In this document: positions 7,062 through 25,051 of the stretch, piece after piece
Layout of the letters: every line of letters begins with the position of its first letter
Numbering within the stretch: position 1 is the stretch's first letter
Source of the DNA: an uncultured Christensenellaceae bacterium
Lineage (GTDB): Bacteria; Bacillota; Clostridia; Christensenellales; Borkfalkiaceae
Direction of reading: 5' to 3'
Length of the DNA stretch: 64,000 nucleotides
Assembly (NCBI GenBank): GCA_910587825.1
Contig: CAJUNJ010000006.1
Coordinates: forward strand, 34,732 to 98,731
Program-made: the position numbers and the translations under genes
The notes under the pieces: model-generated
Seen by the model: only the letters and a program-made list of their open reading frames with translations
The model's database searches: none
Told to the model about the DNA's origin: nothing

Positions 7062-7289
7062 ATGAGAAAAGTAAATAAAGGCGAAGAGTATTTAAATAAG
7101 TTTCCTAAATTCAAAAAATGGATAAATGAGTGTGTTTGTTGCCACAGAAAAGGATATAACCCCGATATGCCTGAAAAAATCACCGTGGTTGATGGCTCGT
7201 TAGAAGTTTATTTTTTAAAAAAATATTTTAAACCTTTGCGCTTAAATTCTTATGGGCTTTGTGAAATTTGTGAAAAACTTAAAAATTAA
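7062..7289 (+). CDS. small Cys-rich (zinc-ribbon-like) protein, putative immunity for cassette 4
   Basis: The 75-aa ORF starts at the base after the tip stop (TAAATG). It has CVCC near the N-terminal part and CEIC near the C-terminus. Confidence 0.45.
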   Translation: MRKVNKGEEYLNKFPKFKKWINECVCCHRKGYNPDMPEKITVVDGSLEVYFLKKYFKPLRLNSYGLCEICEKLKN

Positions 7290-7349
7290 TTTTTATTAAT
7301 TCAACGGATAGCAAGTAAAAAACAGAAGCAAATACAATAAACGGAAAAG

Positions 7350-7374
7350 CGGGTTCGGCGATATGCCGAACCCG
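7350..7374 (+). terminator. hairpin closing the rhs array
   Basis: CGGGTTCGGC-gatat-GCCGAACCCG followed by TTTTAC. Confidence 0.55.
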
Positions 7375-7428
7375 TTTTACTGTGTCGGTATGAAAATTAA
7401 ACCATACAAATAATTATTAATTAATATA

Positions 7429-7458
7429 TTGACAATAAAACGTGGTTTGTTATATAAT
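7429..7458 (+). promoter_or_regulatory. sigma-70/SigA-type promoter for the surface-protein gene
   Basis: TTGACA (7429-7434), an 18-nt spacer and TATAAT (7453-7458), about 45 nt upstream of the ATG at 7504. Confidence 0.6.
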
Positions 7459-7503
7459 TAAAGAGTAATTTGGGGAATATTCTTATTTTACAGAGGTAGT
7501 TTT

Positions 7504-9618
7504 ATGAAATACAAATTTTTCACGAGGGGTCTTTTAGCGGTTCTGGGCTTGATGTGCGCAGTTTGCTTTGCGTTGGGGCTACATTTTACCGAGACGGCTT
7601 TTGCTGCCGATGGCGACCGGATAGACATAGAAAGTTATACCCTTACGCTTGACGTAAACGAATTTACATATTCGGGTTTGGAAATTAAACCGACAGCGAC
7701 CGTAAATAACGGCACGGCAAACCTTGTTGAGGGAACTGATTATACTATTTCGTACGAAAACAACGTAGAAGCGGGCACGGCAACCGTCAAAGCAGAGGGT
7801 AAGGGTGATTATACCGGCACTTTATCCGCACAGTTCACGATAAATCCCGCTACCGATAACGCCTGGCAGAGAAGTGATATTGACTCGGACGTGATTTTCT
7901 ACGGTTCGTACAATCCCGAAGTTCCTGCTTTTACCGTTTGGGCGAAGTACGGTTCCGAAAATGCAATTTTCAAATTTTACGACGGCGACAATAAAGAAAT
8001 TTCCGCCGCCGATCTTGCCACGGCAGATGCCGGCGAATATAAGGTAACGGCTCAGATAGCCGCAACCGGCAGTTATAATGCAATAGAAGAAATATTGACG
8101 GACACTTTCAGGATTTATCCCGCAAGAAATAACTGGACGCAGGCGCCCAAGGTTGTTGAATGGGAGTACGGTAAGTTCGACGCAACCGTCAACCTGTTTA
8201 TGGGTGTTGCCGAACACGGCGACGTCAGGTTCACGATATCTAACCAGAATGAAACTTTTATCAGAGATTTTACCGTTAACGAAGGTGTCGTTACAAACCA
8301 AAATTACGTAAAAATTCTTTCGGATGAACTTACCGCCGGAAAATACACGCTTAGCGCAACTGTCAACGGAGGAAATAACTATCAGGATATACCTGCTACT
8401 CAGGTAGAATTCGAAGTAAGGCAGACTTCGAACGACTGGATGACCTTTCCCGACGTCGTCGAATGGCAGTACGGAAATTATAACAAGGACACCAACCTGT
8501 TTTTAGCTTCCGTAAATTACGGCACGGTGTGGTTCAAAGTCAAAACTGCGGAAGACGGTGAAGACTTAACAAGTGAATTTACCGCGGTAAACGGAATTAT
8601 ACAGGAAGAAGACGGCGAAATTTCAAACGTGCTTTCCAAGTTTGAAAAGGGCAAATATTATGTCAGCGTGCGCGTGGACGTGGGCGACGCCAACCGCGAA
8701 GAGATACACGCAACGGGTTTTGAGTTCGACGTTATTCAAGCCGCGAACGGCTGGCAGGCGTCACCCAACGTAATTGCGTGGGAGTACGGCGGATATAACC
8801 CCAACGTCAATTTGATAATAGGTACGCCTTTGCACGGTACGGCAAAGTTCGTTATAACCGACGGGGAAAATAATCTGACAAGAGAATTTTCACTTTTTGA
8901 AGGCATTATAGACGAGGCGGACAACGGCGACGTTTTGGCAATTATTAAGAATCTGCACGCGGGCGATTACTATCTTGTCGCCACTGTCGCTTCGGACGAA
9001 AACGGCAATTATTCGGCTATAGAAGGTCAGACGCCCTTGCAGTTTACGGTAAATCAGGCGGTCAACGATTGGAAAGTTACGCCCAGCATAGAAAGCTGGG
9101 TAAAGGGCAAATATAACGCGGAAGTCAATTTCGTCACTGCGGAAGCCGAGCACGGCGTTGTCGATTACGTCATTTATAAGACTACGGACGAAGAAAGCAT
9201 TATTTATCAGGTTAGTAACGGAGAAGTAATTGTCGACAATCTTGCACAGGCGGGAGTGGGTTATTATACGTTGAAAGCGACCGTTGCGGCTACGGACGAT
9301 TTCTCGGGCGTGGAAAGGACGTTTACGTTCAACGTCTTTGCGCAGGGACTGCCCTGGTGGGCGATTGTAATTATCGTCGTCGGTGCTTTGGGCATAACCG
9401 CGCTTGTGTTCTTCATTCTTCACCAGAAAGGCGTATTACAGATGCTTACCGAAAAGGTGATAGTTGCTATGCGCACCAAGATGACCGTTGACGCGACGAT
9501 TGCGGCTGTAAGGGCAAACAAGGTTGCGGAGGCGGCGAAACGTTCTGTTGCGGCGGCCGAAGAGGAAGAAAGGCGCAAAGCCGAACAAGACAAAAACGAC
9601 GGAAATTTAAACCAATAA
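7504..9618 (+). CDS. cell-surface protein with signal peptide, MBG/Ig-like domain, five tandem ~100-aa repeats, C-terminal TM anchor and charged tail
   Basis: The RBS is AGAGGT. The signal-like N-terminus is LLAVLGLMCAVCFALG. An MBG-type module (YSGLEIKPT...GTDYTISYENNVEAGTATVKAEGKGDYTG) follows. The repeats share N(N/D/G)W...P.V..WEYG.(Y/F)N..VNL. The C-terminal TM is WWAIVIIVVGALGITALVFFIL. Confidence 0.8.
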   Translation: MKYKFFTRGLLAVLGLMCAVCFALGLHFTETAFAADGDRIDIESYTLTLDVNEFTYSGLEIKPTATVNNGTANLVEGTDYTISYENNVEAGTATVKAEGKGDYTGTLSAQFTINPATDNAWQRSDIDSDVIFYGSYNPEVPAFTVWAKYGSENAIFKFYDGDNKEISAADLATADAGEYKVTAQIAATGSYNAIEEILTDTFRIYPARNNWTQAPKVVEWEYGKFDATVNLFMGVAEHGDVRFTISNQNETFIRDFTVNEGVVTNQNYVKILSDELTAGKYTLSATVNGGNNYQDIPATQVEFEVRQTSNDWMTFPDVVEWQYGNYNKDTNLFLASVNYGTVWFKVKTAEDGEDLTSEFTAVNGIIQEEDGEISNVLSKFEKGKYYVSVRVDVGDANREEIHATGFEFDVIQAANGWQASPNVIAWEYGGYNPNVNLIIGTPLHGTAKFVITDGENNLTREFSLFEGIIDEADNGDVLAIIKNLHAGDYYLVATVASDENGNYSAIEGQTPLQFTVNQAVNDWKVTPSIESWVKGKYNAEVNFVTAEAEHGVVDYVIYKTTDEESIIYQVSNGEVIVDNLAQAGVGYYTLKATVAATDDFSGVERTFTFNVFAQGLPWWAIVIIVVGALGITALVFFILHQKGVLQMLTEKVIVAMRTKMTVDATIAAVRANKVAEAAKRSVAAAEEEERRKAEQDKNDGNLNQ

Positions 9619-9906: not shown

Positions 9907-9967
9907 TTAAAACACCTTAAAATTGCTTGTAATTTTTATTCTGATTATATATAATAATTAAGAAATT

Positions 9968-10042
9968 GGGGTGTCGCCAAGCGGTAAGGCAACGGACTCT
10001 GACTCCGTCATTCGTTGGTTCAAATCCAGCTACCCCAGCCAA
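9968..10042 (+). tRNA. tRNA-Gln (anticodon CUG), CCA encoded
   Basis: Hand-folded cloverleaf. The acceptor stem is TGGGGTG/TACCCCA, the D arm GCC-AAGCGGTAA-GGC, and the anticodon arm ACGGA-CTCTGAC-TCCGT (CTG in the centre). The T arm is GTTGG-TTCAAAT-CCAGC, with discriminator G and CCA. Total length is 75 nt. Confidence 0.9.
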
Positions 10043-13277: not shown

Positions 13278-13422
13278 AAGGGTATCATACGAACTCTATC
13301 GTATAAGTTTATTATATCATAAATTTTATAGATGTCAAGAGAAAACAAACATTTGTTTATATTATTTTTTTGTATCTTATTGTCTATTTTATAATTAAAG
13401 TGTCGAATTTCAAATAAGTAAA

Positions 13423-13446
13423 CCGCCGACGGAGTCCCGTCGGCGG
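13423..13446 (-). terminator. terminator hairpin downstream of fic
   Basis: CCGCCGACGG-agtc-CCGTCGGCGG, followed by a T-rich stretch on the minus strand. Confidence 0.6.
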
Positions 13447-13468
13447 CTGGCTGGCTATTTTAACCTTT

Positions 13469-14323
13469 TTAATCTTCTGTTTCGTAATAGTAGGAATAGT
13501 CTATACCTTTCATAAACATTTCACGGTTGTCAATTTCGTCTGTAAGCGCACTGCTGATAAGTGCAAGAATATCGGTATAATCCATAGGACTTTTCTGCAT
13601 TGCTGTAAGATACGCCCGCTTGTCTATCTTGCTCCAATCTACGCATTTGCGCAAATTCTTTTTCAAAATCAGGTCAAGCCAGATTCTCGTGCTTCTGCCG
13701 TTGCCTTCCATAAATGGATGAGCGACATTCATTTCTACATACTTCTTCACAATGTTTTCAATTGTATCTTCCGGCATCTTGTCAATGATTGCAAGATTTT
13801 CTTTCAGGTACATTGACGGGGCAAACGCAAATCCGCCTTTTGCAATGTTCAAGCCGCGAATTTTACCCGCAAAATCGTAAAGCCCGCCGAAAATAAATCC
13901 GTGAATTTGCTGTAAACCTTTCGTAGTACCTACTTCGATTTCGTCTATCAAGCCGTTTTCAAAGAGTTCGTAAGCCTTTTGTTTGCTCTTTTCGTCTAAT
14001 GTGCTTCCGATTCCTTTTACCCATCTGGAAAAGTTCTCTTTGTTTTTTGCAGGTATGAGCGCAGTAATAAGGGTAACGCCGTTTTCGTCCACGACGTCTG
14101 TAAGGTAGGACTTTCCGTCGTTTGCCTTTAATTTCAGTTGTTTGCAAATTGCAATCAACTGAGTATTTCGGCGTTTCATCGTAGCCCAATAAACACGTGG
14201 ATTATTACTTTTTGTCAACGCCTGCGAAATGTCCATAGCGCAAAACCACCATTTGGAAGTATCGTCATCCCAAACGGCTCTCACGGGAATATCTTCAAAA
14301 AATCTGATAGACGTCTTTATCAT
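13469..14323 (-). CDS. Fic-domain protein (AMPylase-type motif) with Bro-N-like N-terminal domain
   Basis: It carries the canonical Fic motif [12 protein letters not shown] (HxFx[D/E]GNGRxxR). The N-terminus [31 protein letters not shown] resembles Bro-N/antirepressor domains. Confidence 0.85.
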
Positions 14324-14423
14324 GCTAATTCAATCCGTGTGCTTTTTCTCTATTCTACCACAAAAAATAGATTCTTGCAATCTGTTCAAACGCATTTCCA
14401 CAGAAGATGTTTTTCTGGTTTTA

Positions 14424-14453
14424 TTGACAATAGACAATAAAGTATGCTATAAT
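14424..14453 (+). promoter_or_regulatory. strong extended -10 promoter at the head of the XRE/R-M operon
   Basis: TTGACA (14424-14429), an 18-nt spacer and TGcTATAAT (14445-14453). A tandem GACAATA GACAATA overlaps the -35 box. Confidence 0.65.
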
Positions 14454-14477
14454 ATGTTATAATTTGATAGGTGTATT

Positions 14478-14681
14478 ATGGAATTCTCAAAATTCTGCCT
14501 TGAAACAAGGCTAAAGCTCAATTTAAGTCAGGAAATGTTGGCACGGAAGCTCGACGTTTCTTTTGCAACAATCAACCGCTGGGAGAACGGCAAAGCCCTT
14601 CCCCAGAAACTGACACTATACCGTTTTGAAAAGTTCTGCGAAGAAAACGGTATAGAATTTGTCACAAACTTGACTCTTTGA
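14478..14681 (+). CDS. XRE-family helix-turn-helix regulator (controller-protein-like position)
   Basis: LSQEMLARKLDVSFATINRWENGKALP is a classic HTH_3 signature. It is the first gene of the operon and is divergent from fic. Confidence 0.85.
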   Translation: MEFSKFCLETRLKLNLSQEMLARKLDVSFATINRWENGKALPQKLTLYRFEKFCEENGIEFVTNLTL

Positions 14682-14706
14682 AAATTTTACGTGCGAGGAA
14701 ATTATT

Positions 14707-15540
14707 ATGGCTACGAGTAAGAAACTTGAAATTATATACTACAACGGACAACCTGACGGTGTGCGTTCTGTCCGTCGTCATCTGTCTACAATTACTACTT
14801 ATGTAATACCGCGTCCTTTGCTATCGGAAGCAAAGAAGATTTCGGGTATTACAAGACCCGGCATCTATTATCTAATTAATGAGAACGATGAAAATAAAAT
14901 TGCACAAATCTATATTGGGCAGACGCGCAACGGTGTAACACGCCTTGATGACCATAACCGTTCCAAAGATTTCTGGAATAAGGCGATTGTGTTCCTTGCC
15001 GACAACAAGACCTTTTCTCTTGATATGATAAGCGGGCTTGAAGAATACGCCATTATTAAAGCTCACGAAGCAAAGCGTTATAAGGTCGAAAATTCAGTTA
15101 AACCTAAATATGAGATTGACGAATACGACCTTCCCTCTATCGAAGAAGTATATGACGAAATTCAATTCGTCATGGCAACGCTCGGATATAAGATGAATAA
15201 TGCAAAAAAGAACGAAGATCAACGAGAAGTACTCCACACTACTCGTAACGGAATTACAGCTTATGGGGTATATACCGGAGATAAATTTGAAGTACTTGAA
15301 GATTCCGAAGTCGATATGAAAACCAAATGCCTTGAATGGCAAAAAATTCAACTTCAAAGACAAAACGCTTTAAAAAATGGTGAAATTGTTGAAAAAAATG
15401 GAAAATACATATTAAAGGTTTCAGTGTCATTTTCTTCACCTAGTGCTGCCGCAGCTTTCATTTTGGGGCACAATGCCAATGGTTGGATATCGTGGAAAAA
15501 CAAAGATGGAAAAACATTAGACGAAATTTACAGAAAATAA
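14707..15540 (+). CDS. GIY-YIG nuclease domain protein with C-terminal DUF4357-like domain
   Basis: The GIY-YIG landmarks are GIYYL...QIYIGQT...R(LDDH)...LEEYAI...VEN. The C-terminal SPSAAAAFILGHNANGWISWK matches my memory of DUF4357. Confidence 0.7.
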   Translation: MATSKKLEIIYYNGQPDGVRSVRRHLSTITTYVIPRPLLSEAKKISGITRPGIYYLINENDENKIAQIYIGQTRNGVTRLDDHNRSKDFWNKAIVFLADNKTFSLDMISGLEEYAIIKAHEAKRYKVENSVKPKYEIDEYDLPSIEEVYDEIQFVMATLGYKMNNAKKNEDQREVLHTTRNGITAYGVYTGDKFEVLEDSEVDMKTKCLEWQKIQLQRQNALKNGEIVEKNGKYILKVSVSFSSPSAAAAFILGHNANGWISWKNKDGKTLDEIYRK

Positions 15541-15586
15541 ATTAAACAGAATTATTCCGCTTATACAGAAAAACGAAAAACATAAT

Positions 15587-16882
15587 ATGGAAGAGAATTT
15601 ATTTAACAAAATTTTAACCCGAGTTCACGCAGATGAAATTACCACTTCAAATTTCTATAAAGACGAAGAGTTTGAGAATTTTATTGAAATTCTTAACGAA
15701 GACATAGGAAAATTTAAAAATTATACTTATGACGGCAAAGCTCAAGACTTGATATTTAAGGGATTAAAAAAGTTTAGTCCCCTAGCTACTAAATATGGTC
15801 AATTTCTAAAGTATTTGGAAGTTGAATTCGATAAGTTAGTTGTACCTTGCATCATTTTAATACCTCTGAATTTTTTAAATGATAATGTTTTGAAATCTGA
15901 TTTATCTCTCACCGACAACATAAAACTATTTAAAACTGAGAAAGCAAATACAGTTCAAAAGCTAAAAATATCAAAGAAAAAGTCTGCTTTAGAAAAATAT
16001 GTTGAAACAACTATATATGCAAAATTACTGAAAGAACATATTTTACTTGCAAAAGATAAAAACTTTTTTAACTTTCCTATATTAGCGATTAATATTAACT
16101 GTATCAATTATCAGGCTGACAATGAATCTTCCATCATAACAGAAGCTACATATAGTTTTATCAGAATGTTAGATTATTCTTCGCCCCGAGATGGATATGG
16201 GTGGGGAATATTGGATCAAGATAAACTTCCGACTAGGTTGTATGGTGTTTATTATAACGAAGTTGGAACATCTCCAAAAGCTCCGTACAATAACGGATAT
16301 GGTTATTCAGGGCGTTTTAAGTTTTCGCCCTATTTGGATATTAACTCAACTGAATTTATTAAACAAATTGACCTTTTCCGTGATTTGCTTGTTAAATTTT
16401 GTAATAATTGTTTTTTAGATAAACGAAAGATAGACAAAAAGACAGTCTTAAAAATTGAAAAATGGCAAAAAGCAGTTCTTTTATATAATACCGCTTATGA
16501 GTTTGCATCAATAGAAAAATATGATGAATGCCTTTTACAGCAAATTATAATTTTAGAATTATTGTTTCTTGGAAATTCGGAACATAACAAGCGGGTTGCA
16601 TTATGCGATAAAATAACTCCTTTCATGGAGAATAATTACGGCGCAGATTCCGACGCCATAAAAGAAGTTATAGAAAATGCTTATAAAAAGAGAAACAAGT
16701 TTGTACACGAAGGGCAAAGCATTTGTTACAACTTTTCTACATTTAAGTCGTTAAACAGCCATCAAGGTCTTATACGAGGCATGAAGCCTTTTGCTTATGG
16801 TGGCGGAGATATCCCGATAGATAACATTAAACTTCTGAAAAATTTATTTGTTCTTATAGGCAAAATTATTACGAAGTATTGA
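15587..16882 (+). CDS. 431-aa protein with C-terminal HEPN-like domain (Rx4H), N-terminal region unassignable
   Basis: The C-terminal ~120 aa is predicted helical and contains IILELLFLG and AYKKRNKFVHEG (R-N-K-F-V-H = Rx4H, as in Apea-/DUF4145-type HEPN). No other motif was recognised. Confidence 0.5.
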   Translation: MEENLFNKILTRVHADEITTSNFYKDEEFENFIEILNEDIGKFKNYTYDGKAQDLIFKGLKKFSPLATKYGQFLKYLEVEFDKLVVPCIILIPLNFLNDNVLKSDLSLTDNIKLFKTEKANTVQKLKISKKKSALEKYVETTIYAKLLKEHILLAKDKNFFNFPILAININCINYQADNESSIITEATYSFIRMLDYSSPRDGYGWGILDQDKLPTRLYGVYYNEVGTSPKAPYNNGYGYSGRFKFSPYLDINSTEFIKQIDLFRDLLVKFCNNCFLDKRKIDKKTVLKIEKWQKAVLLYNTAYEFASIEKYDECLLQQIIILELLFLGNSEHNKRVALCDKITPFMENNYGADSDAIKEVIENAYKKRNKFVHEGQSICYNFSTFKSLNSHQGLIRGMKPFAYGGGDIPIDNIKLLKNLFVLIGKIITKY

Positions 16883-16914
16883 CATTACAGAAATAAAAAT
16901 TAGGAGAAATTATT

Positions 16915-18546
16915 ATGGCAAAGGATAAAGAAAAAACAGTATCTTTGGAAGATGTTCTGTGGGATTGCAGAGTCTCTTTGCGTGGCGTTGGCAGTCTTGA
17001 TAAAAACAGAGACGCTGTTATCAGTTTAGTATTCTTGAAATTTGCAGGAGATAAATTCAAAAAATGCCGTGAACAGATTATTAAAGAATATGGCGAGATT
17101 CCCGCTTTCGTGGAAAAGCCTTCGTTTTATAATGCTGAAAATGTATTCTATCTGAAAGAAACCGCTCGTTGGACGTATATAGTAGACCACGCAAGCCAAA
17201 ACGATATCGCCGTAATAATCGACCAAGCAATGGCTGATATCGAGAATGACAATCCCTCTCTTGCCGGTGCTTTATCAAAAAATTTATTCTCCACGCTCGG
17301 GGCAGATAAAAACAAAATTAAAAGTTTGATAGACAGTGTAAACCGTATTGACGAAAAGCGGTTTCACGAAGAAGATTTGATAGGCAGAGTTTACGAATAC
17401 TTTCTGCAAATTTATGCTGCGTCCGGAACGAAAGAAGACGGTGAATTTTATACTCCCGCTAGTATTGTAAAACTTATAGCCGAAATGATAGAACCTTATG
17501 ACGGCGTTGTTTATGACCCCTGTTGCGGAAGCGGCGGTATGTTTGTTCAGTCAATGAAGTTTGTAGACAAGCATAATGGAAACCGCGATAAAATATCGGT
17601 TATCGGACAGGAAAGCGTACAAGAAACTTGGCGTCTCTGCAAAATGAATCTCGCTATCCGCGGCATTGCGCATAACCTTGGTAAAACCAACGCTTCAACG
17701 TTTACTGACGACCAGCACAAAGATAAAAAAGTTGACTATATAATGGCAAACCCTCCGTTCAACCTTAAAAATTGGAGAACGGAAAACGAACTTATAAATG
17801 ACGCCCGTTGGAGCGGTTATTGTGAAACGGCACCTCGCGTCTCTAATGCTAACTATGCTTGGATTCTGCACATGATTTCCAAGCTTGATGTAAATCACGG
17901 AATTGCCGGCTTCTTACTTGCCAACGGTGCATTAGGCGATTCAGACGATGCTGAAATCCGCAAGAACATATTACTTAAAGATAAAGTTGAAGCGATAATT
18001 GTTTTACCCCGAGATATGTTCTATACAACTGATATATCCGTTACACTTTGGATTATCAACATGAATAAACGCGCAGGAACAGTAAACGGCAGGAAAGTTC
18101 GTGACAGAAGCCACGAAGTATTGTTTATGGATTTGCGCACTTGGGATAACAATATAGAAGAAATCACTATTGATAAAGGCAAGAAAAAGAAAAAAACCGT
18201 ACTTACTGACGGCCAGATTGCAAAAATAAAAGAAATATATACAAATTGGCAAAGCAAAGATAGAACGCTTTATCGGGATATACCAGAACTCTGTAAATCG
18301 GTAAAAGTAAACAACAGCGATTTAACAGACGAAGAGATTAAAAACAACGTTGTTACTATTGAAAAGCAGAACTATGCTCTTATGCCAAGCAAATATATCG
18401 AGTTTATCGACCACGACTTGGATATCGATTATCACACTGAAATGCAACGTATTCAAAAAGAAATGTCAGAAGTCATAAAGCAAGAACGAGAATCACAAAA
18501 ATTATTGTCTGCCGCTTTCAAGGGGATTGGCTATGGCATTGACTAA
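16915..18546 (+). CDS. hsdM: type I restriction-modification system, N6-adenine DNA methyltransferase subunit
   Basis: It has an HsdM N-terminal region, the AdoMet motif VYDPCCGSGGMF and the catalytic NPPFN. Confidence 0.95.
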   Translation: MAKDKEKTVSLEDVLWDCRVSLRGVGSLDKNRDAVISLVFLKFAGDKFKKCREQIIKEYGEIPAFVEKPSFYNAENVFYLKETARWTYIVDHASQNDIAVIIDQAMADIENDNPSLAGALSKNLFSTLGADKNKIKSLIDSVNRIDEKRFHEEDLIGRVYEYFLQIYAASGTKEDGEFYTPASIVKLIAEMIEPYDGVVYDPCCGSGGMFVQSMKFVDKHNGNRDKISVIGQESVQETWRLCKMNLAIRGIAHNLGKTNASTFTDDQHKDKKVDYIMANPPFNLKNWRTENELINDARWSGYCETAPRVSNANYAWILHMISKLDVNHGIAGFLLANGALGDSDDAEIRKNILLKDKVEAIIVLPRDMFYTTDISVTLWIINMNKRAGTVNGRKVRDRSHEVLFMDLRTWDNNIEEITIDKGKKKKKTVLTDGQIAKIKEIYTNWQSKDRTLYRDIPELCKSVKVNNSDLTDEEIKNNVVTIEKQNYALMPSKYIEFIDHDLDIDYHTEMQRIQKEMSEVIKQERESQKLLSAAFKGIGYGID

Positions 18547-19648
18547 ATATAAATTAGGGGAACTTATTGAACTTTCTGAAGAAAGAAATTTTCATAGGCA
18601 ATTTACATTGCATTCTGTAAGAGGTATAGCTACAAAAAAAGAATTTATTGAAACAAAAGCAGATATGGACGGTGTAAGTTTAAATAGTTATAAAATCGTT
18701 TATCCAAACTTTTTTGCTTATGTTCCTGACACATCTCGAAGAGGTGATAAGATTTCATTGTCTATAAATAAATCCAATAATGTTTATTTAGTATCGTCTA
18801 TATCGACTGTATTTAAAATAAGTAACCACCATATTTTACTCCCAGATTATTTATTTATGTACTTCAATCGTCCTGAATTTGATAGATACTCTCGCTTTAA
18901 TTCTTGGGGGTCGGCAAGAGAAACTTTTTCATGGGAAGAAATGTGCGATATTGATATTGTCCTACCTCCTATTGAAATTCAGAAAAAGTATGTTGATGTT
19001 TACAATTCAATGGTTGAAAATCAAACAGCATACGAAAAAGGTCTTGAAGATTTAAAACTTGTTTGCGACGGCTTTATAGAAGACTTACGCCGAAAAATGC
19101 TTTGTGAGAAGATTGGGCAATATTTGGAATACCACGATATAAGAAATTCAGACAATAAATGCACTAATGTAAAGGGTGTAACAGTATATAAGAATTTTAG
19201 AGAACCCACGTCAAAAGTAAATAGAGATGAGTTGCGCGGATATAAAATTGTAAAGCCTTCTTGGATTACTTTTGTGCAAACAACTCACAACGAAAAAGTA
19301 TTTGCGTATGCCTTTAATAACACAAATGAAGATATAGTTGTATCTTCGGTAAACGAGGTGTTTTCCACAAACACAAAAAAACTTTTACCGCAATATTTGT
19401 GTATGTTTTTCAATAGAAAAGAATTTGACCGATATGCGCGATTTCATTCTTGGGGATCGGCGCGAGAGACTTTTACTTGGAATGATTTGATTGAAGTTGC
19501 TATTCCTATACCCGATATAGATATTCAGCAATCCATTGTTGATATTTATAATCAATACATAACACGAAAAGAAATCAACGAAAAACTAAAAACACAAATC
19601 AAAGACCTTTGTCCTATTCTAATCAAGGGTTCTTTGCAAGAAGCATAA
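18527..19648 (+). CDS. hsdS: type I R-M specificity subunit
   Basis: It overlaps hsdM by 20 nt. It has two target-recognition halves, each ending in a conserved repeat (RPEFDRYSRFNSWGSARETFSWEEM...IEIQKKYVDVYN and RKEFDRYARFHSWGSARETFTWNDL...IDIQQSIVDIYN). Confidence 0.9.
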   Translation: MAMALTKYKLGELIELSEERNFHRQFTLHSVRGIATKKEFIETKADMDGVSLNSYKIVYPNFFAYVPDTSRRGDKISLSINKSNNVYLVSSISTVFKISNHHILLPDYLFMYFNRPEFDRYSRFNSWGSARETFSWEEMCDIDIVLPPIEIQKKYVDVYNSMVENQTAYEKGLEDLKLVCDGFIEDLRRKMLCEKIGQYLEYHDIRNSDNKCTNVKGVTVYKNFREPTSKVNRDELRGYKIVKPSWITFVQTTHNEKVFAYAFNNTNEDIVVSSVNEVFSTNTKKLLPQYLCMFFNRKEFDRYARFHSWGSARETFTWNDLIEVAIPIPDIDIQQSIVDIYNQYITRKEINEKLKTQIKDLCPILIKGSLQEA

Positions 19649-19662
19649 GGAGATAAAATATT

Positions 19663-20430
19663 ATGGATTTTGAAAAATTAAATTTATTGATTGCCGAAGC
19701 CGATTGGTTAATAGACGAAGGTGTAACATCAGGTGATAGCAGATTTCAAGCATGGAAAATGAAAGTTTCACGATTTTTAATTAAGACCTTTGGTGAAAAA
19801 AGCCATGAATATGAGTATTTTCAACACACATCCTTTTCTTTAGGGGTATACACATTATCAACGCCAGATAGTGCTTTTGTAGAGGCTTGTACTAATGGAT
19901 TACGTATTACAAGAGATGTGTTGTCTACTTATCTCGACGAAATGGAAGAAGAACTGCCAAAAAGAAATATCAAAGCTAAGGTAAGCACTAATTTCTCAAA
20001 AGTTTTTATTGTGCATGGACACGATGGAGAATTAAAAGAAGCAGTTGCACGCTTAATTGAGCAACAAAGTATCGAAACGATTATATTATCTAATAAAACA
20101 AATGAAGGCAAAACAATTATAGAAAAAATCGAACATTACAGTGATGTGAGTGCGGCTATATGTTTATTTACCGCAGATGATAAAGGGAAAGCCAAATCGG
20201 AAAAATCATTGAGTGACCGAGCAAGACAAAATGTGGTATTCGAAGCGGGATATTTTATGGGGAAACTTGGTCGAAATCGTATGGTTATTGTGGCTGAAAG
20301 TAATGTCGAACTTCCTTCCGATATGAGCGGAATGGTTTACACTAATAAATCCGATTGGAAAGTCGAAGTATTAAAGGAATTGAAATCGATGGGTTTTGCT
20401 ATCGATTTCAATAAACTTTTTGAGGAATAA
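19663..20430 (+). CDS. TIR-like domain protein (Cap12 / Pycsar-effector type), with ~110-aa unassigned N-terminal domain
   Basis: KVFIVHGHDGELKEAVARLIE...TIIEKIEHYSDVSAAICLFTADD...RARQNVVFEAGYFMGKLGRNRMVIV...ELPSDMSGMVY matches the prokaryotic TIR-like family pattern (VFIVHGhD ... ARqNVifElGyF ... PSDl.G). It includes the conserved Glu. Confidence 0.7.
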   Translation: MDFEKLNLLIAEADWLIDEGVTSGDSRFQAWKMKVSRFLIKTFGEKSHEYEYFQHTSFSLGVYTLSTPDSAFVEACTNGLRITRDVLSTYLDEMEEELPKRNIKAKVSTNFSKVFIVHGHDGELKEAVARLIEQQSIETIILSNKTNEGKTIIEKIEHYSDVSAAICLFTADDKGKAKSEKSLSDRARQNVVFEAGYFMGKLGRNRMVIVAESNVELPSDMSGMVYTNKSDWKVEVLKELKSMGFAIDFNKLFEE

Positions 20431-20433
20431 CAT

Positions 20434-23400
20434 ATGACCTACCATTTTACCAAAGGACAATTTAATGAATCTGAGCTTGAAAGTGCAATAATAGAATTGT
20501 TCAAAAATCAAGAATATGATTATATTCACGGAGATAGTATTCACCGTAAATATGAGGACGTATTACTTGAAGATGATTTGCGTGCTTATTTGTCTGAACG
20601 CTATGCGAAAGAAAGCCTTACCGAAAGTGAAGTGCAAATGATTATCAATCGCATAAAGCTTATTCCTTCAACTCCTCTTTATGCGGGAAACCGCGAAACG
20701 TTTTGGCTTATCAACGAAGGTTTTGACCTTGTAAGGGATGACCCTGATAAAATTGCTTTACATGTCGACTTTATTAATTTTGATTCTCCTAAGCAAAACA
20801 AATTCAAGGTTGTAAACCAATACTACGTTAAGGGCGAGCATTTACGTTGTCCCGATATGCTAGTGTTTATCAACGGTATACCTATGGCAATTTGGGAATT
20901 CAAATCTGCTATAAAAGAAGATACTACTATTTACGACGCATGGAAACAAATTAATATAAGGTACAACCGCGATATTTCTAAACTGACTAAATACTGCTTT
21001 CTTTCCGTTATTTCTGACGGTGCGAATACAAGGCTTGGAACTATCTTTACTCCTTATAAATTTTATTTTTCTTGGAATAAAGCAAACGAACAAGATACAG
21101 TTTCAAACGGTATAAGCTCACTTTTTACTATGGTAGAAGGCGTATTCGCAAAAGAACGCATTATTTCTATCCTGCGTGATTTTGTTTTCTACCCCGATAA
21201 TAGCGACAAGGAAGAAGCTATCATTTGCCGTTATCCGCAATATTTTGCTGCAAATAAAATGCTACAAAGTTTAAAGAATCACAAAAAGCCGTCCGGAGAC
21301 GGCAAGGGTGGAATTTATTTCGGGGCTACCGGATGCGGGAAAACATATACTATGTTGTTCTTGTGCAGAATGTTAGCACACAGAGACAGCGCAGCTTTTG
21401 GCAATCCCACTTCACTTATCTTGGTTGACCGCGAAGACTTAGATAATCAAACATCGGAGTTGTTTGAAAGAGCAAAAAGATTTTTAAGCGATAAAAATGT
21501 TCGCAGCATTGAAACCAGAAAGGATCTGCATGATACGTTAATTGTTAATCAAAGCGGCGGCGTCTATATAACTACTATTCAGAAATTCTGTGAAGATACA
21601 GGTCTTTTATCGGAGAGAAATAATATTTTCTGCATTTCCGATGAGGCGCACCGTACACAATTGAGTGTTGGCAATAAACTTAAAAAGACTGAAAAAGGTC
21701 TAGTAAATACATACGGATTTGCACAATATCTGCGTTGGAGTTTTCCTAACGCTACCTATTGCGGATTTACAGGTACGCCTATTGACGAGGCTATTGCGGT
21801 ATTTGGAGATATTGTTGATAGCTACACTATGAAAGAAGCCAGTGATGACGGTATAACTGTCCGCATTTCCTATGAACCCCGTCTCGCGCGGGTTATTCTA
21901 TCAGAGGAACAGGCGAAAGAGATTCAAATGTATTACGATAAATGTGCTGAAGAAGGTTCAACGCCCGAACAGATTGAAGAAAGTCAAAAGGCTATGTCCA
22001 AAATTTCTGCTATCCTAGGACATCCCGATGTATTAAAACGGTTGGCAAAAGATATTGTAGAGCATTACGAGAATCTTTGTAATGAAAAACCTAATATAGT
22101 TCAAAAAGCAATGATTGTTTGTGCCGATAGAATTCTGGCATATAAATTATTGCAAGAGATTTTGAAAATCAGAAATGATTGGGGTAAAGCAAGGAAAGCT
22201 GAAGACGAAAGCAAGCTTACAAAAGAGCAATTGGACAAGCTTAAGGCATTGCCTAAAATTAACCTTGTTGCAACGCAAGGCAAAGATGATGAGAAAAAGC
22301 TTTACGACCTTTGCGGTTCTAAGGCTTATCGGCAAATGCTTGATAAACAATTCAAAGATGACAATTCCAATTTCAAAATCGCTGTTGTTGTCGATATGTG
22401 GATTACAGGCTTTGATGTCCCTTCGCTTTCTGTTATGTACATAAATAAACCTTTACAGAAACACACGCTTATCCAAACTATTTCAAGAGTCAATAGGGTT
22501 TTTGAAGGCAAAGAAAGAGGACTTGTAGTTGATTATATTGGCATTAAAAACGATATGTTGAAAGCCGTTAAAAAATACGGAAGCCCGCAGGAAAGTCCTA
22601 TTGACGAAATTAATATTTCATTAGGAATATTCCGAAATCATCTGTCAATGTTGGATGATTTGATGATAGGTTTCAATGCAACCCGCTATTATACTGGTAA
22701 TTCTCTTGAGCGCTTATATTGCTTAAATGATGCAGCCGAATATGTACAGCTAAATAAGGAAATGCAAACGAGATTTATGGGGCTTTCAAAACGTTTGAAA
22801 GGGGCTTATCAGATTGTATTCCCTACAGGAGAACTAACTCAAATCGAAATATCCAAGGCACAATTTTATCTTGCTATTCGTTCAATTATTTACAAGCAAA
22901 CTATCGGCGATGCGCCTGACGCAGAAGTAATGAATAGCATTGTAGAGGAAATGGTAAAACAAGCAATAACATGTACTGGCGTTGAAAATATAATTGACGA
23001 GAATAAATCTGTCGACTTATTCAGTGAAGAATTTTTAAAAGAGCTGGATGCAGTTAAAATGCCTATTACAAAGTTCAACGCATTAATTAAGTTATTGCGA
23101 AAAGCTATTGTTAGTTATGGCAAAGTCAACAAAGTTAAATCGTTAGAATTTGACGAACGCTTAAAGCGCGTTGTTGATGCTTACAACAACAGAGATAAAC
23201 TTACATTCGCAAGTGAAGTTGTTGCCGATTTTATGGACGATTTGTGTAATCAGCTAATTGATATCTTCAATGACTTGAAAGAAGACAAAACATCTTTTGA
23301 AAAGTTAGGAATTACATTCGAAGAAAAAGTGTTCTACGATATTCTGGTAAAAGTACGCGATACTCACGGTTTTGAATACGAGGATAAAAAATGCGTGTCG

Positions 23401-23601
23401 CTTGCAAAAGAAATCAAAAAGATTGTTGAAGACAAAACACAATATGTCGATTGGTCTACTCGCTCTGATATAAGAAACAAATTAAATAAGGAGTTGACTA
23501 TACTTTTGTATAAAAACGGTTATCCTCCCGAATGGGACGAAGAAGTTTTTGAAAAAGTAATGGAACAAGCTGAGAATTTCAAACGGTACAATGGAGATTA
23601 A
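20434..23601 (+). CDS. hsdR: type I R-M restriction (helicase-nuclease) subunit
   Basis: The 1055-aa protein has an HsdR N-terminal nuclease region, Walker A GATGCGKT, the DEAH box SDEAHRTQ, helicase C-terminal motifs and a type I-specific C-terminal helical domain. Confidence 0.95.
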   Translation: MTYHFTKGQFNESELESAIIELFKNQEYDYIHGDSIHRKYEDVLLEDDLRAYLSERYAKESLTESEVQMIINRIKLIPSTPLYAGNRETFWLINEGFDLVRDDPDKIALHVDFINFDSPKQNKFKVVNQYYVKGEHLRCPDMLVFINGIPMAIWEFKSAIKEDTTIYDAWKQINIRYNRDISKLTKYCFLSVISDGANTRLGTIFTPYKFYFSWNKANEQDTVSNGISSLFTMVEGVFAKERIISILRDFVFYPDNSDKEEAIICRYPQYFAANKMLQSLKNHKKPSGDGKGGIYFGATGCGKTYTMLFLCRMLAHRDSAAFGNPTSLILVDREDLDNQTSELFERAKRFLSDKNVRSIETRKDLHDTLIVNQSGGVYITTIQKFCEDTGLLSERNNIFCISDEAHRTQLSVGNKLKKTEKGLVNTYGFAQYLRWSFPNATYCGFTGTPIDEAIAVFGDIVDSYTMKEASDDGITVRISYEPRLARVILSEEQAKEIQMYYDKCAEEGSTPEQIEESQKAMSKISAILGHPDVLKRLAKDIVEHYENLCNEKPNIVQKAMIVCADRILAYKLLQEILKIRNDWGKARKAEDESKLTKEQLDKLKALPKINLVATQGKDDEKKLYDLCGSKAYRQMLDKQFKDDNSNFKIAVVVDMWITGFDVPSLSVMYINKPLQKHTLIQTISRVNRVFEGKERGLVVDYIGIKNDMLKAVKKYGSPQESPIDEINISLGIFRNHLSMLDDLMIGFNATRYYTGNSLERLYCLNDAAEYVQLNKEMQTRFMGLSKRLKGAYQIVFPTGELTQIEISKAQFYLAIRSIIYKQTIGDAPDAEVMNSIVEEMVKQAITCTGVENIIDENKSVDLFSEEFLKELDAVKMPITKFNALIKLLRKAIVSYGKVNKVKSLEFDERLKRVVDAYNNRDKLTFASEVVADFMDDLCNQLIDIFNDLKEDKTSFEKLGITFEEKVFYDILVKVRDTHGFEYEDKKCVSLAKEIKKIVEDKTQYVDWSTRSDIRNKLNKELTILLYKNGYPPEWDEEVFEKVMEQAENFKRYNGD

Positions 23602-23629
23602 AGATTAATTAATCTTATTTCGATAATTT

Positions 23630-24685
23630 ATGAAACAAAAGAAACTACGGACGGATATACTTTTTCTAATAATTTTTATTATTTGGACAATTATTGCTGC
23701 AACTCTATTTTTTGCCGTTGCAAAAAATGAAAATGCAGATACAGCAATTATCCTTAAAATATTGAAAATCTTAATCGGTATTTTTTATATGCCAGTACCG
23801 TTCTTGCCTTTTGTGTTAATTTATTTACATAAACGCAGTAAAGCAACTGGTGATGGGAAGCCTTTGAGTGTTGAGGCAATGCGTGAAAGTAAAAAACATA
23901 TACCAGAAAAAATTTATAAGTTCTGTTCTTTGACTTCCAAAGGTGAAAATGAAAAGTTAAATAAGAGTAAATTAAAAACTCTTGCAAGCAATGAAATTTG
24001 GCTATCAAGGTGTTCTGATTTGAACGACCCATTTGAAGGAATTAAATTCATTTTACCTGAAAGTAATTTCTCGCAAAACGGGCTACCAGAAGAAATCAAA
24101 AATAGATATAATGTTAAAAATACGGGTGAATTAATCGATTTTTTAAGCAGTTTTAGAGATAAATACTGTCAAACATCCTTTTCTTCTTCGTATAATGATG
24201 TCCAAATGTGGGGTTACTATGCTAATGGGTGTAGAGGTTACTGTGTAGAATATAAAGTATTGGAAAAAGAAATGCTATTTCCAGTATTTTATGTTAATAA
24301 ACGCATAATCCTATCTGGATTATTTAAAAGTGCACGGTATAAGCGGCAATGCTTGAAAAATTTAAAGCAATTGCATAAAAGTCTACGTAGTGTTCCAACA
24401 AAGGAATATGTTCAATATAACTTATATTTGCAATCATTTAAGTACGCCAAATGGCAGTTCGAAAAGGAGATTAGAGCAATTGACATAACAGCACCATATT
24501 ATAAAGGCGGTAATCAGTCTGCAACTAATTTTGGATTACAGCCAACAAAAATTATTGCTGGATACTTGTCGGAGTATATTGAGGAACTAAAACAAATAGC
24601 AATTCAAACAAATATATCATTTTCTATTATGAAACCTAATTTTGAAACAAATAAGTTTGAACTTAAAGAACAAAAGATTTTATAA
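23630..24685 (+). CDS. DUF2971-family protein with two N-terminal transmembrane helices
   Basis: IYKFCSL...IWLSRCSDLNDPFEG and MWGYYANGCRGYCVEY match the DUF2971 signature (YkY.s...fs....fNDPfE ... mWshYa....G.c). The N-terminal TMs are LFLIIFIIWTIIAATLFFAVA and ILIGIFYMPVPFLPFVLIYL. Confidence 0.7.
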   Translation: MKQKKLRTDILFLIIFIIWTIIAATLFFAVAKNENADTAIILKILKILIGIFYMPVPFLPFVLIYLHKRSKATGDGKPLSVEAMRESKKHIPEKIYKFCSLTSKGENEKLNKSKLKTLASNEIWLSRCSDLNDPFEGIKFILPESNFSQNGLPEEIKNRYNVKNTGELIDFLSSFRDKYCQTSFSSSYNDVQMWGYYANGCRGYCVEYKVLEKEMLFPVFYVNKRIILSGLFKSARYKRQCLKNLKQLHKSLRSVPTKEYVQYNLYLQSFKYAKWQFEKEIRAIDITAPYYKGGNQSATNFGLQPTKIIAGYLSEYIEELKQIAIQTNISFSIMKPNFETNKFELKEQKIL

Positions 24686-24699
24686 GCAAATACAATGTG

Positions 24700-24733
24700 A
24701 AACAAAATCGGGGCGAAAGCCACGATTTTGTTT
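24700..24733 (+). terminator. hairpin terminating the R-M operon
   Basis: AAACAAAATCG-gggcgaaagcca-CGATTTTGTTT. Confidence 0.6.
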
Positions 24734-24751
24734 CCTGAAAATTATACATTT

Positions 24752-24959
24752 TTGGGAGCTACCCTAAATTTGGGAGTTATACTCCCAAAAATCGGCTATA
24801 GGGCGTTGTGGAAATTGGGAGTTGCTCCCAAATTGGCATTGAATGACGGACAAAAGTGGTTTTTTGTCCGTCATTCAAAAATTGTGCGATAAAATTTGCA
24901 AAGACAAGGTAAAAAAATACCCCCAAACGATGTAAAATCATTTGGGAGAAATATGGGAG
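24752..24959. promoter_or_regulatory. cluster of seven TTGGGAG / CTCCCAA heptamers (two forming palindromes) next to attR
   Basis: TTGGGAG occurs at 24752, 24769, 24815 and 24942, with ATGGGAG at 24953. CTCCCAA occurs at 24782 and 24825. There is also a separate hairpin, GAATGACGGACAAAA-gtggt-TTTTGTCCGTCATTC, at 24841-24875. Confidence 0.5.
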
Positions 24960-25051
24960 TTAAAAATTGAAAATCATCGAAAGTTGCTTATATTGTGGTT
25001 ATTGTTGTTGAAAAACACTACATATTGTGGTTGTAAAGTTCGTCTTTAAGC

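Follow-up and report, generated by a model that had tools for sequence, protein, structure and literature searches.

What switches on a Cap12/PycTIR-type TIR domain that is encoded inside a type I restriction operon, with no cyclase beside it? The question is raised by a gene at positions 19663–20430 of a 64,000-nt stretch of DNA (the window) from an uncultured Christensenellaceae bacterium (GenBank assembly GCA_910587825.1, contig CAJUNJ010000006.1, positions 34,732 to 98,731 of the forward strand). The gene stands between hsdS and hsdR and encodes a 255-residue protein in which a four-helix bundle and a linker precede the TIR domain. We found that this protein is a new member of PDC-S35, a family predicted earlier to act in defence, for the same embedding reason. 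We favour, with moderate confidence, the explanation that the gene product is an autonomous, SpbK-like sensor and NAD+ glycohydrolase (NADase), an abortive-infection protein that often occupies the hsdS–hsdR slot.

A preliminary description of this locus, made from the sequence alone, had reported a TIR-like gene of 255 codons, separated by 14 nt from hsdS upstream and by 3 nt from hsdR downstream, in the slot that prrC takes in the prr locus. Our analysis agrees on the coordinates, spacing, length and slot, and the four peptide motifs quoted in that description are all present in the translation. The gene, the parts of its product and the adjoining hsd genes are as follows.

19663–20430, + strand: TIR gene, 255 residues, PDC-S35 family; ATG-start open reading frame encoding a helical bundle joined by a linker to a Cap12/PycTIR-type TIR domain
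19647–19652, + strand: AAGGAG ribosome-binding site of the TIR gene, sharing bases with the hsdS stop codon and ending 10 nt ahead of the ATG (sequence inspection)
19663–19953, + strand: N-terminal four-helix bundle, residues 1–97, a putative sensor or clustering module (AlphaFold2)
19954–19998, + strand: low-confidence, length-variable linker, residues 98–112 (model and alignment)
19999–20427, + strand: TIR domain (PF10137, residues 113–228) and C-terminal helices (Pfam, Foldseek, profile-to-PDB alignment)
16915–18546, + strand: hsdM, type I methyltransferase (Pfam N6_Mtase, E = 2.6e-83; HsdM_N, E = 2.9e-13)
18527–19648, + strand: hsdS, specificity subunit (Pfam Methylase_S; PADLOC Specificity_I, E = 5e-147)
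20434–23601, + strand: hsdR, restriction/translocase subunit (HSDR_N, SWI2_SNF2, T1R_D3-like and T1RH-like_C; PADLOC REase_I, E = 3e-285)

The genes around the TIR gene form a complete, genuine type I restriction system (hsdM, hsdS and hsdR, by Pfam), and the TIR gene is tightly coupled to both hsdS and hsdR. Its ATG follows the hsdS stop codon (TAA, 19646–19648) after a gap of 14 nt, and its own stop codon (20428–20430) is 3 nt from the hsdR ATG at 20434, whose ribosome-binding site, GAGGA (20422–20426), lies within the final codons of the TIR gene. Proteins identical to the window TIR protein occur on 33 public contigs. The final codons of the gene also hold, before the hsdR start, a hairpin with a 14-bp stem followed by a T-rich stretch (20379–20412, + strand), with a minimum free energy of −22.8 kcal/mol in a 90-nt window against a gene average of −12.2. 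This hairpin was considered as a conserved attenuator and rejected in that role, as the other embedded loci examined (23) do not keep it; the choice is between a chance structure and an attenuator of hsdR expression that is specific to the lineage.

The full-length protein matches the PADLOC model PDLC05005 of PDC-S35 (E = 2.1e-88; residues 3–252 against profile positions 4–262 of 264), and four more PDC-S35 models match it as well. The PDC families are 145 ‘phage defence candidates’ that were added to PADLOC (PADLOC-DB v2) by ‘guilt-by-embedding’, that is, from genes nested in bacteriophage exclusion (BREX) systems, defence island systems associated with restriction–modification (DISARM) and type I restriction systems (Payne et al. 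2024, bioRxiv 10.1101/2024.01.29.577857). The window protein is a full-length member and is embedded in a type I system like the defining genes of the family, a listing that the preliminary description had missed. RefSeq names its homologues ‘nucleotide-binding protein’; more than 7,900 full-length homologues were detected, and relatives occur in at least 518 of 185,579 species-representative genomes. Our literature searches, which also covered TIR genes embedded in type I systems, turned up no paper in which PDC-S35 is named or tested, and studies on other PDC families left it out.

The TIR domain and the N-terminal bundle

The Cap12/PycTIR-type TIR domain read from the sequence in the preliminary description is borne out by profiles and by structure prediction. 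PF10137 matches residues 113–228 over profile positions 1–116 of 119 (E = 3.9e-38; 130.5 bits against a gathering cut-off of 24.7), and PADLOC models of TIR effectors from cyclic oligonucleotide-based antiphage signalling systems (CBASS; E = 3e-17) and of PycTIR (E = 4.5e-13) match the TIR part only. A full-length AlphaFold2 model was built on 45 homologues, with a mean predicted local distance difference test score (pLDDT) of 82.9. Its best PDB matches in Foldseek were the TIR domains of TIR-STING proteins, 7un8 (SfSTING, E = 4e-6) and 9lmq/9lmr, with 7un8 and 9lmq spanning E values from 4e-6 to 3e-4. Among PDB sequences, the family profile matched Cap12 (E = 9e-9) and PycTIR (E = 1e-5).

In the profile alignment, RARQNVVFEAG of the window protein pairs with PRDNVVFEFG of SfSTING, and ELPSD pairs with DLPTD. 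After correction of an 8-residue numbering offset, R188, N190, E194 and D220 correspond to SfSTING R78, N80, E84 (the catalytic residue) and D110, whose roles have been described (PMC9402430), and all four are invariant in the 45-sequence alignment of homologues; the glutamate that the preliminary description had singled out is thus intact. In SfSTING, D110 is contributed by the neighbouring TIR domain to complete the active site (PMC9402430). The model shows the flavodoxin-like TIR fold and also has a CC-loop β-hairpin at residues 171–187 (strands 171–175 and 184–187), between βC and αC, a feature described as typical of the Cap12/PycTIR clade. Judged from sequence and model, the TIR domain is probably catalytically competent, with a predicted NAD+ glycohydrolase activity.

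The protein resembles Cap12 (TIR-STING) and PycTIR in its PF10137 domain, its active-site R, N and E with a trans-acting D, and its CC-loop hairpin, and by analogy it probably depletes NAD+ after oligomerisation. Cap12 and PycTIR are activated by ligand-driven oligomerisation (SfSTING: PMC9402430). By contrast, the window protein has no STING or cyclic-nucleotide-binding domain, an unrelated bundle holds the regulatory position, and the operon has no cyclase. On this last point our scan concurs with the preliminary description: none of the eight window genes scanned (13.4–24.7 kb) matches a cyclase model in Pfam or PADLOC.

When residues 1–105 were modelled alone with AlphaFold2, they gave a pLDDT of 91 and a predicted template modelling score of 0.81, with helices at residues 2–19, 26–43, 48–55 and 69–97 and a disordered linker after them. 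Confidence in the full-length model falls below a pLDDT of 50 at residues 98–108, and the 45-sequence alignment shows gaps and variation in the linker. Pfam returned nothing, even at E ≤ 1, for the first ~105 residues, a region that the preliminary description had left unassigned. A PDB fold search with the bundle returned only generic helical bundles (FliS, HPt and the QseE sensor; best E ≥ 0.6), a profile search of PDB sequences returned only chance-level matches to RGS domains, and in Pfam and in the PDB fold and sequence searches the bundle showed no similarity to STING, SAVED or cyclic-nucleotide-monophosphate-binding domains. DUF4145, a helical domain at the N terminus of the EcoEI-type HsdR in some loci, was tried as a relative of the bundle and rejected (hhalign probability 0.3%).

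The bundle is rare (only 155 clusters among 1.8 billion representative proteins searched by sequence) and occurs with at least seven effector domains. Among 74 representatives of at least 200 residues, the fused domain is PF10137 in 44, TIR_2 in 10, DUF4062 in 6, a classical TIR in 4, and AbiH, a DpnII/MboI-type nuclease and Hypoth_Ymh in 2 each; several carriers have C-terminal regions with no Pfam match. Because the bundle fronts interchangeable toxic effectors, it is a portable module. It is also less conserved among homologues than the TIR domain (~40% versus 65–72% identity), and such swapping together with faster evolution is as expected of a sensor or regulatory domain. DUF4062 also characterizes Evangelion, a DUF4062/TIR-like single-gene defence (bioRxiv 10.64898/2026.06.25.731849), from which the window protein differs in having PF10137 and not DUF4062.

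Fusions of the bundle to effectors other than TIR domains also occur in restriction operons. Three of the five fusions with informative contigs, one to DUF4062 (P0163) and two to AbiH (P0185 and P0209), lie directly after hsdS, and the other two (P0151 and P0219) are away from restriction genes; P0133, P0175, P0155 and P0179 were left out of this count as their contigs are too short. The portability of the bundle and its frequent place right after hsdS are newly noted here. The DUF4062 and AbiH fusions in type I operons are found at L095 2103–3437, L096 963–2342 and L100 2273–3916, and in L100 a Schlafen/AlbA_2 gene lies between the bundle fusion and hsdR.

Genomic settings of the homologues

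We surveyed the context of the best 80 species-level homologous loci, in which open reading frames were called and neighbours were classed by iterated profiles and Pfam. The homologues were distributed as follows.

Between hsdM/hsdS and hsdR: 22 of 80 loci
hsdR directly after, contig end upstream: 1 of 80 loci
hsd genes upstream only: 5 of 80 loci
GmrSD-like gene upstream, decayed or intact (Collinsella): 25 of 80 loci
Collinsella, GmrSD-like gene not in range: 3 of 80 loci
Elsewhere: 24 of 80 loci

Thus, 6 loci beyond the 22 embedded ones are linked to hsd genes. The preliminary description had allowed that the window gene might be a one-off insertion; because the placement is recurrent, that objection fails. 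The ~28 Collinsella loci are near-identical copies and therefore amount to one to three independent events. In this genus (L004–L039, for example L017 7662–8756), the TIR genes are 99–100% identical across at least 25 species-level genomes. The GmrSD_N (DUF262) gene upstream of them is intact (606 residues) in few genomes and reduced to remnants of 96–146 residues in most, and the gene downstream encodes a KAP NTPase or a conserved 412-residue protein with no Pfam or PADLOC match.

The closer metagenomic relatives of the window protein (100% and 68% identical) all have the order hsdM–hsdS–gene–hsdR, with Hachiman and AbiE genes in the vicinity. Contigs with an identical TIR protein (L081–L086; compare window 18527–19648) differ in HsdS, with variants of 368 and 371 residues, which suggests that the TIR gene stays constant while specificity-subunit alleles are swapped around it. 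The embedded loci as a whole fall into two unrelated HsdR families, one with a T1RH-like C terminus and the other with DUF4145 and an EcoEI_R C terminus. Between the Hsd families, HsdM identity is 26% and TIR-protein identity ~53%, the latter rising to 57% within a family. The N-terminal domain is 41–42% identical within an Hsd family versus 39% between families, and because these values are the same within and between, there is no sign that the bundle has co-evolved with a partner. The nearest relatives of embedded TIR proteins are often found in the other Hsd family or at loci that are not embedded. In one Ruminococcus locus (L059), two tandem TIR paralogues (7187–7930 and 7989–8744) lie between hsdS and an EcoEI-type hsdR.

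The slot is shared with other genes. Of the 22 embedded loci, 12 have one or two additional genes separating the TIR gene from hsdR, and this cargo includes PIN_8, KAP NTPase, PDC-S32, a PD-T4-6/Stk2-like Ser/Thr kinase, an extra HsdS and proteins without assignment. Full-length homologues with the same N-terminal domain also occur with no hsd genes, in Collinsella, after guaB/guaA, and by Abi_2 or a type II methylase, and a homologue on a Moraxella plasmid lies between moa (molybdopterin) and nar (nitrate reductase) genes. More distant homologues (~40% identical) are found in type III restriction loci (L069 and L073) and beside a type IIG enzyme (L072), and others adjoin sigma factor, HipA, efflux or ClpB genes. 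Across the homologous loci surveyed, the family has no conserved partner gene.

Candidate modes of activation

The gene, its architecture and fold, its conserved catalytic residues, its repeated embedding, the lack of a cyclase and the existence of stand-alone homologues are established here. As a pattern for how such a protein could work we take SpbK (YddK) of the B. subtilis element ICEBs1, a single-gene TIR NADase that is activated by the SPβ portal protein YonE. SpbK consists of a four-helix bundle (residues 1–94), an 18-residue linker and a TIR domain (residues 113–266); its N-terminal domain binds the dodecameric SPβ portal, whereby the TIR domains are concentrated, form filaments and hydrolyse NAD+ (PMC12847820). 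By its published description, SpbK resembles the window protein in combining a four-helix bundle, a flexible linker and, at the C terminus, a TIR domain in one protein of ~260 residues, and in being encoded by a single gene, without a cyclase, on mobile DNA. It differs in not being embedded in a restriction operon, and no sequence relationship between the two was detected: SpbK is absent from the PDB sequence matches and from the top 50 fold matches of the window protein, and a comparison of residue patterns did not find its published residues in the 150 best listed bundle representatives. The clustering mechanism of SpbK fits the anatomy of the window protein.

We infer that the C-terminal TIR domain would act as an NADase, and only after TIR domains have been gathered, since completing the active site takes a TIR–TIR interface. 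The bundle would stand in for the cyclic-nucleotide receptor domain of effectors in CBASS and in the pyrimidine cyclase system for antiphage resistance (Pycsar), and would serve as the sensor for a phage-derived, probably multimeric cue. Binding of the cue would draw the TIR domains together, and the resulting loss of NAD+ would halt replication of the phage. The hsdS–hsdR junction would be a permissive, much-reused docking site for mobile defence cargo, which is how we would account for the co-transcription of the TIR gene with hsd, and the linkage to restriction could provide layered defence and joint horizontal transfer. Autonomy is supported by the homologues that carry the same N-terminal domain in the absence of hsd genes, and the view of the junction as a cargo slot by the 12 of 22 embedded loci that hold further genes before hsdR.

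Several points weigh against this explanation. In Pfam and PDB searches no relative of known function was detected for the bundle, by sequence or by structure, and its sensor role therefore rests on analogy; the searchable literature holds no biochemical or phage-challenge data for any PDC-S35 member. The TIR domain of SpbK is reported to be closest to that of the short prokaryotic Argonaute system SPARTA, whereas the window TIR domain is of the Cap12/PycTIR type. As for an input from cyclic nucleotides, no cGAS/DncV-like nucleotidyltransferase (CD-NTase) or pyrimidine cyclase was seen among the individually annotated neighbours of homologues, a survey that was not exhaustive; an aggregate PADLOC scan of 109 neighbour proteins, which gives the 25 most frequent of 307 families, cannot prove that a cyclase is absent. 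Finally, the linkage to restriction spans type I systems of two families, the type III and type IIG loci and the GmrSD-like genes of Collinsella, an enrichment that exceeds what pure hitch-hiking obviously predicts, and other effectors with the same bundle also lie directly after hsdS.

The last two observations bear on the possibility that the protein guards the restriction enzyme in the manner of PrrC, which we consider unlikely. The bundle would dock on HsdM2S/HsdR or recognize an anti-restriction protein, for example a DNA mimic or an Stp-like peptide. As long as restriction works, the TIR NADase would be silent; once a phage had disabled the enzyme, release or clustering of the protein would kill the cell. 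The precedent is PrrC with EcoprrI and Stp (bioRxiv 10.1101/2024.01.29.577857). The window gene and prrC have an identical place within a type I operon (hsdM–hsdS–prrC–hsdR in the prr locus), and both encode a suicide-type effector without an immunity gene of its own. Tight coupling to both neighbours, the 22 embedded and 6 further hsd-linked loci, the distant homologues in type III and type IIG settings, and the three of five informative fusions that follow hsdS all speak for a guard. However, PrrC is an unrelated protein, with an ABC-ATPase and a tRNA-Lys anticodon nuclease, and neither of these domains has homology to the window protein in Pfam or PADLOC; prrC is almost exclusively embedded, whereas PDC-S35 genes often stand alone.

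The survey adds further evidence against a guard. Full-length homologues live in genomes without adjacent hsd genes, the protein stays 53% identical between loci in which HsdM is only 26% identical, N-terminal identity is scarcely affected by the Hsd family, two bundle fusions (P0151 and P0219) have no restriction genes in their neighbourhood, and unrelated extra cargo often uses the same slot. The preliminary description had suggested that the state of the HsdMS/HsdR complex may supply the activating input. That part of it is not supported, given the hsd-free homologues, the two unrelated Hsd families, the lack of N-terminal co-divergence and the shared slot, whereas its domain assignment, the slot and the missing cyclase all stood and the placement proved recurrent. 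The bundle with other effectors right after hsdS keeps activation by the HsdMS/HsdR state possible. PrrC-like guarding of the restriction complex is thus possible but unsupported.

A wider form of this idea, more doubtful still, concerns the bundle and not the TIR protein. The bundle, of ~100 residues, could be a restriction-linked sensor or adaptor module, not described before, that couples interchangeable suicide effectors (Cap12-type TIR, TIR_2, DUF4062, AbiH, DpnII-like nuclease and Ymh domains) to restriction–modification status or to phage anti-restriction proteins. If so, this would amount to a ‘restriction guard’ of a general, modular kind, with PrrC as no more than an analogous special case.

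It is very unlikely that the protein is a signalling TIR of the ThsB kind, which would sense a phage and make a cyclic ADP-ribose-type messenger for another protein, encoded either within the island, such as orf431 or the DUF2971 protein described below, or elsewhere. Some bacterial TIR proteins are signal producers, SpbK makes N1-cyclic ADP-ribose and ADP-ribose (PMC12847820), and several uncharacterized genes flank the operon. However, the loci surveyed share no conserved partner gene, the window genes scanned contain no SLOG, Macro or SIR2-type receptor domain, and the characterized members of the PF10137 clade are NAD+-depleting effectors.

Least credible of all, to the point of being extremely improbable, is an orphaned CBASS or Pycsar effector that answers a cyclic nucleotide from a cyclase elsewhere in the genome: the TIR domain does belong to the Cap12/PycTIR Pfam family and matches the PADLOC models of both effector types, but those matches cover the TIR part only, the best full-length match being PDC-S35 (E = 2e-88), the N-terminal domain is unlike STING, SAVED and cyclic-nucleotide-binding domains, and neither the window operon nor the annotated neighbours of homologues include a cyclase.

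The surrounding island and the biology of the family

The operon lies in a low-GC region with other candidate defence genes, whose features are listed here.

13469–24685, no strand: low-GC defence island of ~11 kb, eight genes by Pfam/PADLOC, GC 33–39%
13469–14323, − strand: Bro-N and Fic domains, PDC-S04 (PADLOC/Pfam)
14424–14453, + strand: sigma-70-like promoter with perfect consensus, 12 of 12 matches and extended TG (consensus match only)
14707–15540, + strand: GIY-YIG and DUF4357 domains, PDC-S14 (PADLOC/Pfam)
15587–16882, + strand: orf431, 431 residues, directly upstream of hsdM; no Pfam, PADLOC or PDB sequence match
23630–24685, + strand: DUF2971, PDC-S31, with a predicted N-terminal membrane segment (PADLOC/Pfam)
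9967–10041: tRNA-Gln, ~3.4 kb upstream of the island

With PDC-S04, PDC-S14 and PDC-S31 around the type I genes, the island is a dense stack of candidates. Its GC content (33–39%) compares with 45–50% from ~26 kb onward. The proteins that flank the island occur on ~250 public contigs versus 33 for the TIR protein, which loosely suggests an accessory element; together with the GC contrast and the tRNA-Gln gene, these counts are compatible with an element that was acquired horizontally and varies between strains. No integrase was identified for the island (13400–25000), and on one related contig a Mob_Pre relaxase gene adjoins the operon. The promoter at 14424–14453 precedes seven co-directional, closely spaced genes (14707–24685) and, on its sequence, may drive the whole string. 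The C terminus of orf431 contains KKRNKFVHEG, with an Rx4H motif as in HEPN RNases, and the gene accompanies the hsd operon on the related metagenomic contigs L081, L082 and L086; it may encode another toxic defence effector.

What remains of interest is the trigger of a cyclase-less Cap12-type TIR domain, together with the portability of the bundle and its place after hsdS. A broader question is whether genes at hsdS–hsdR junctions hitch-hike or, like PrrC, back up restriction, and a small single-gene protein with a swappable N-terminal module makes it experimentally tractable. Cap12/PycTIR-type TIR domains have so far been understood only as cyclic-nucleotide-activated effectors. PDC-S35 keeps all of the active-site residues without a cyclase or a nucleotide receptor, and therefore points to another route by which such domains are switched on; identifying its trigger would extend the known inputs of TIR immunity.

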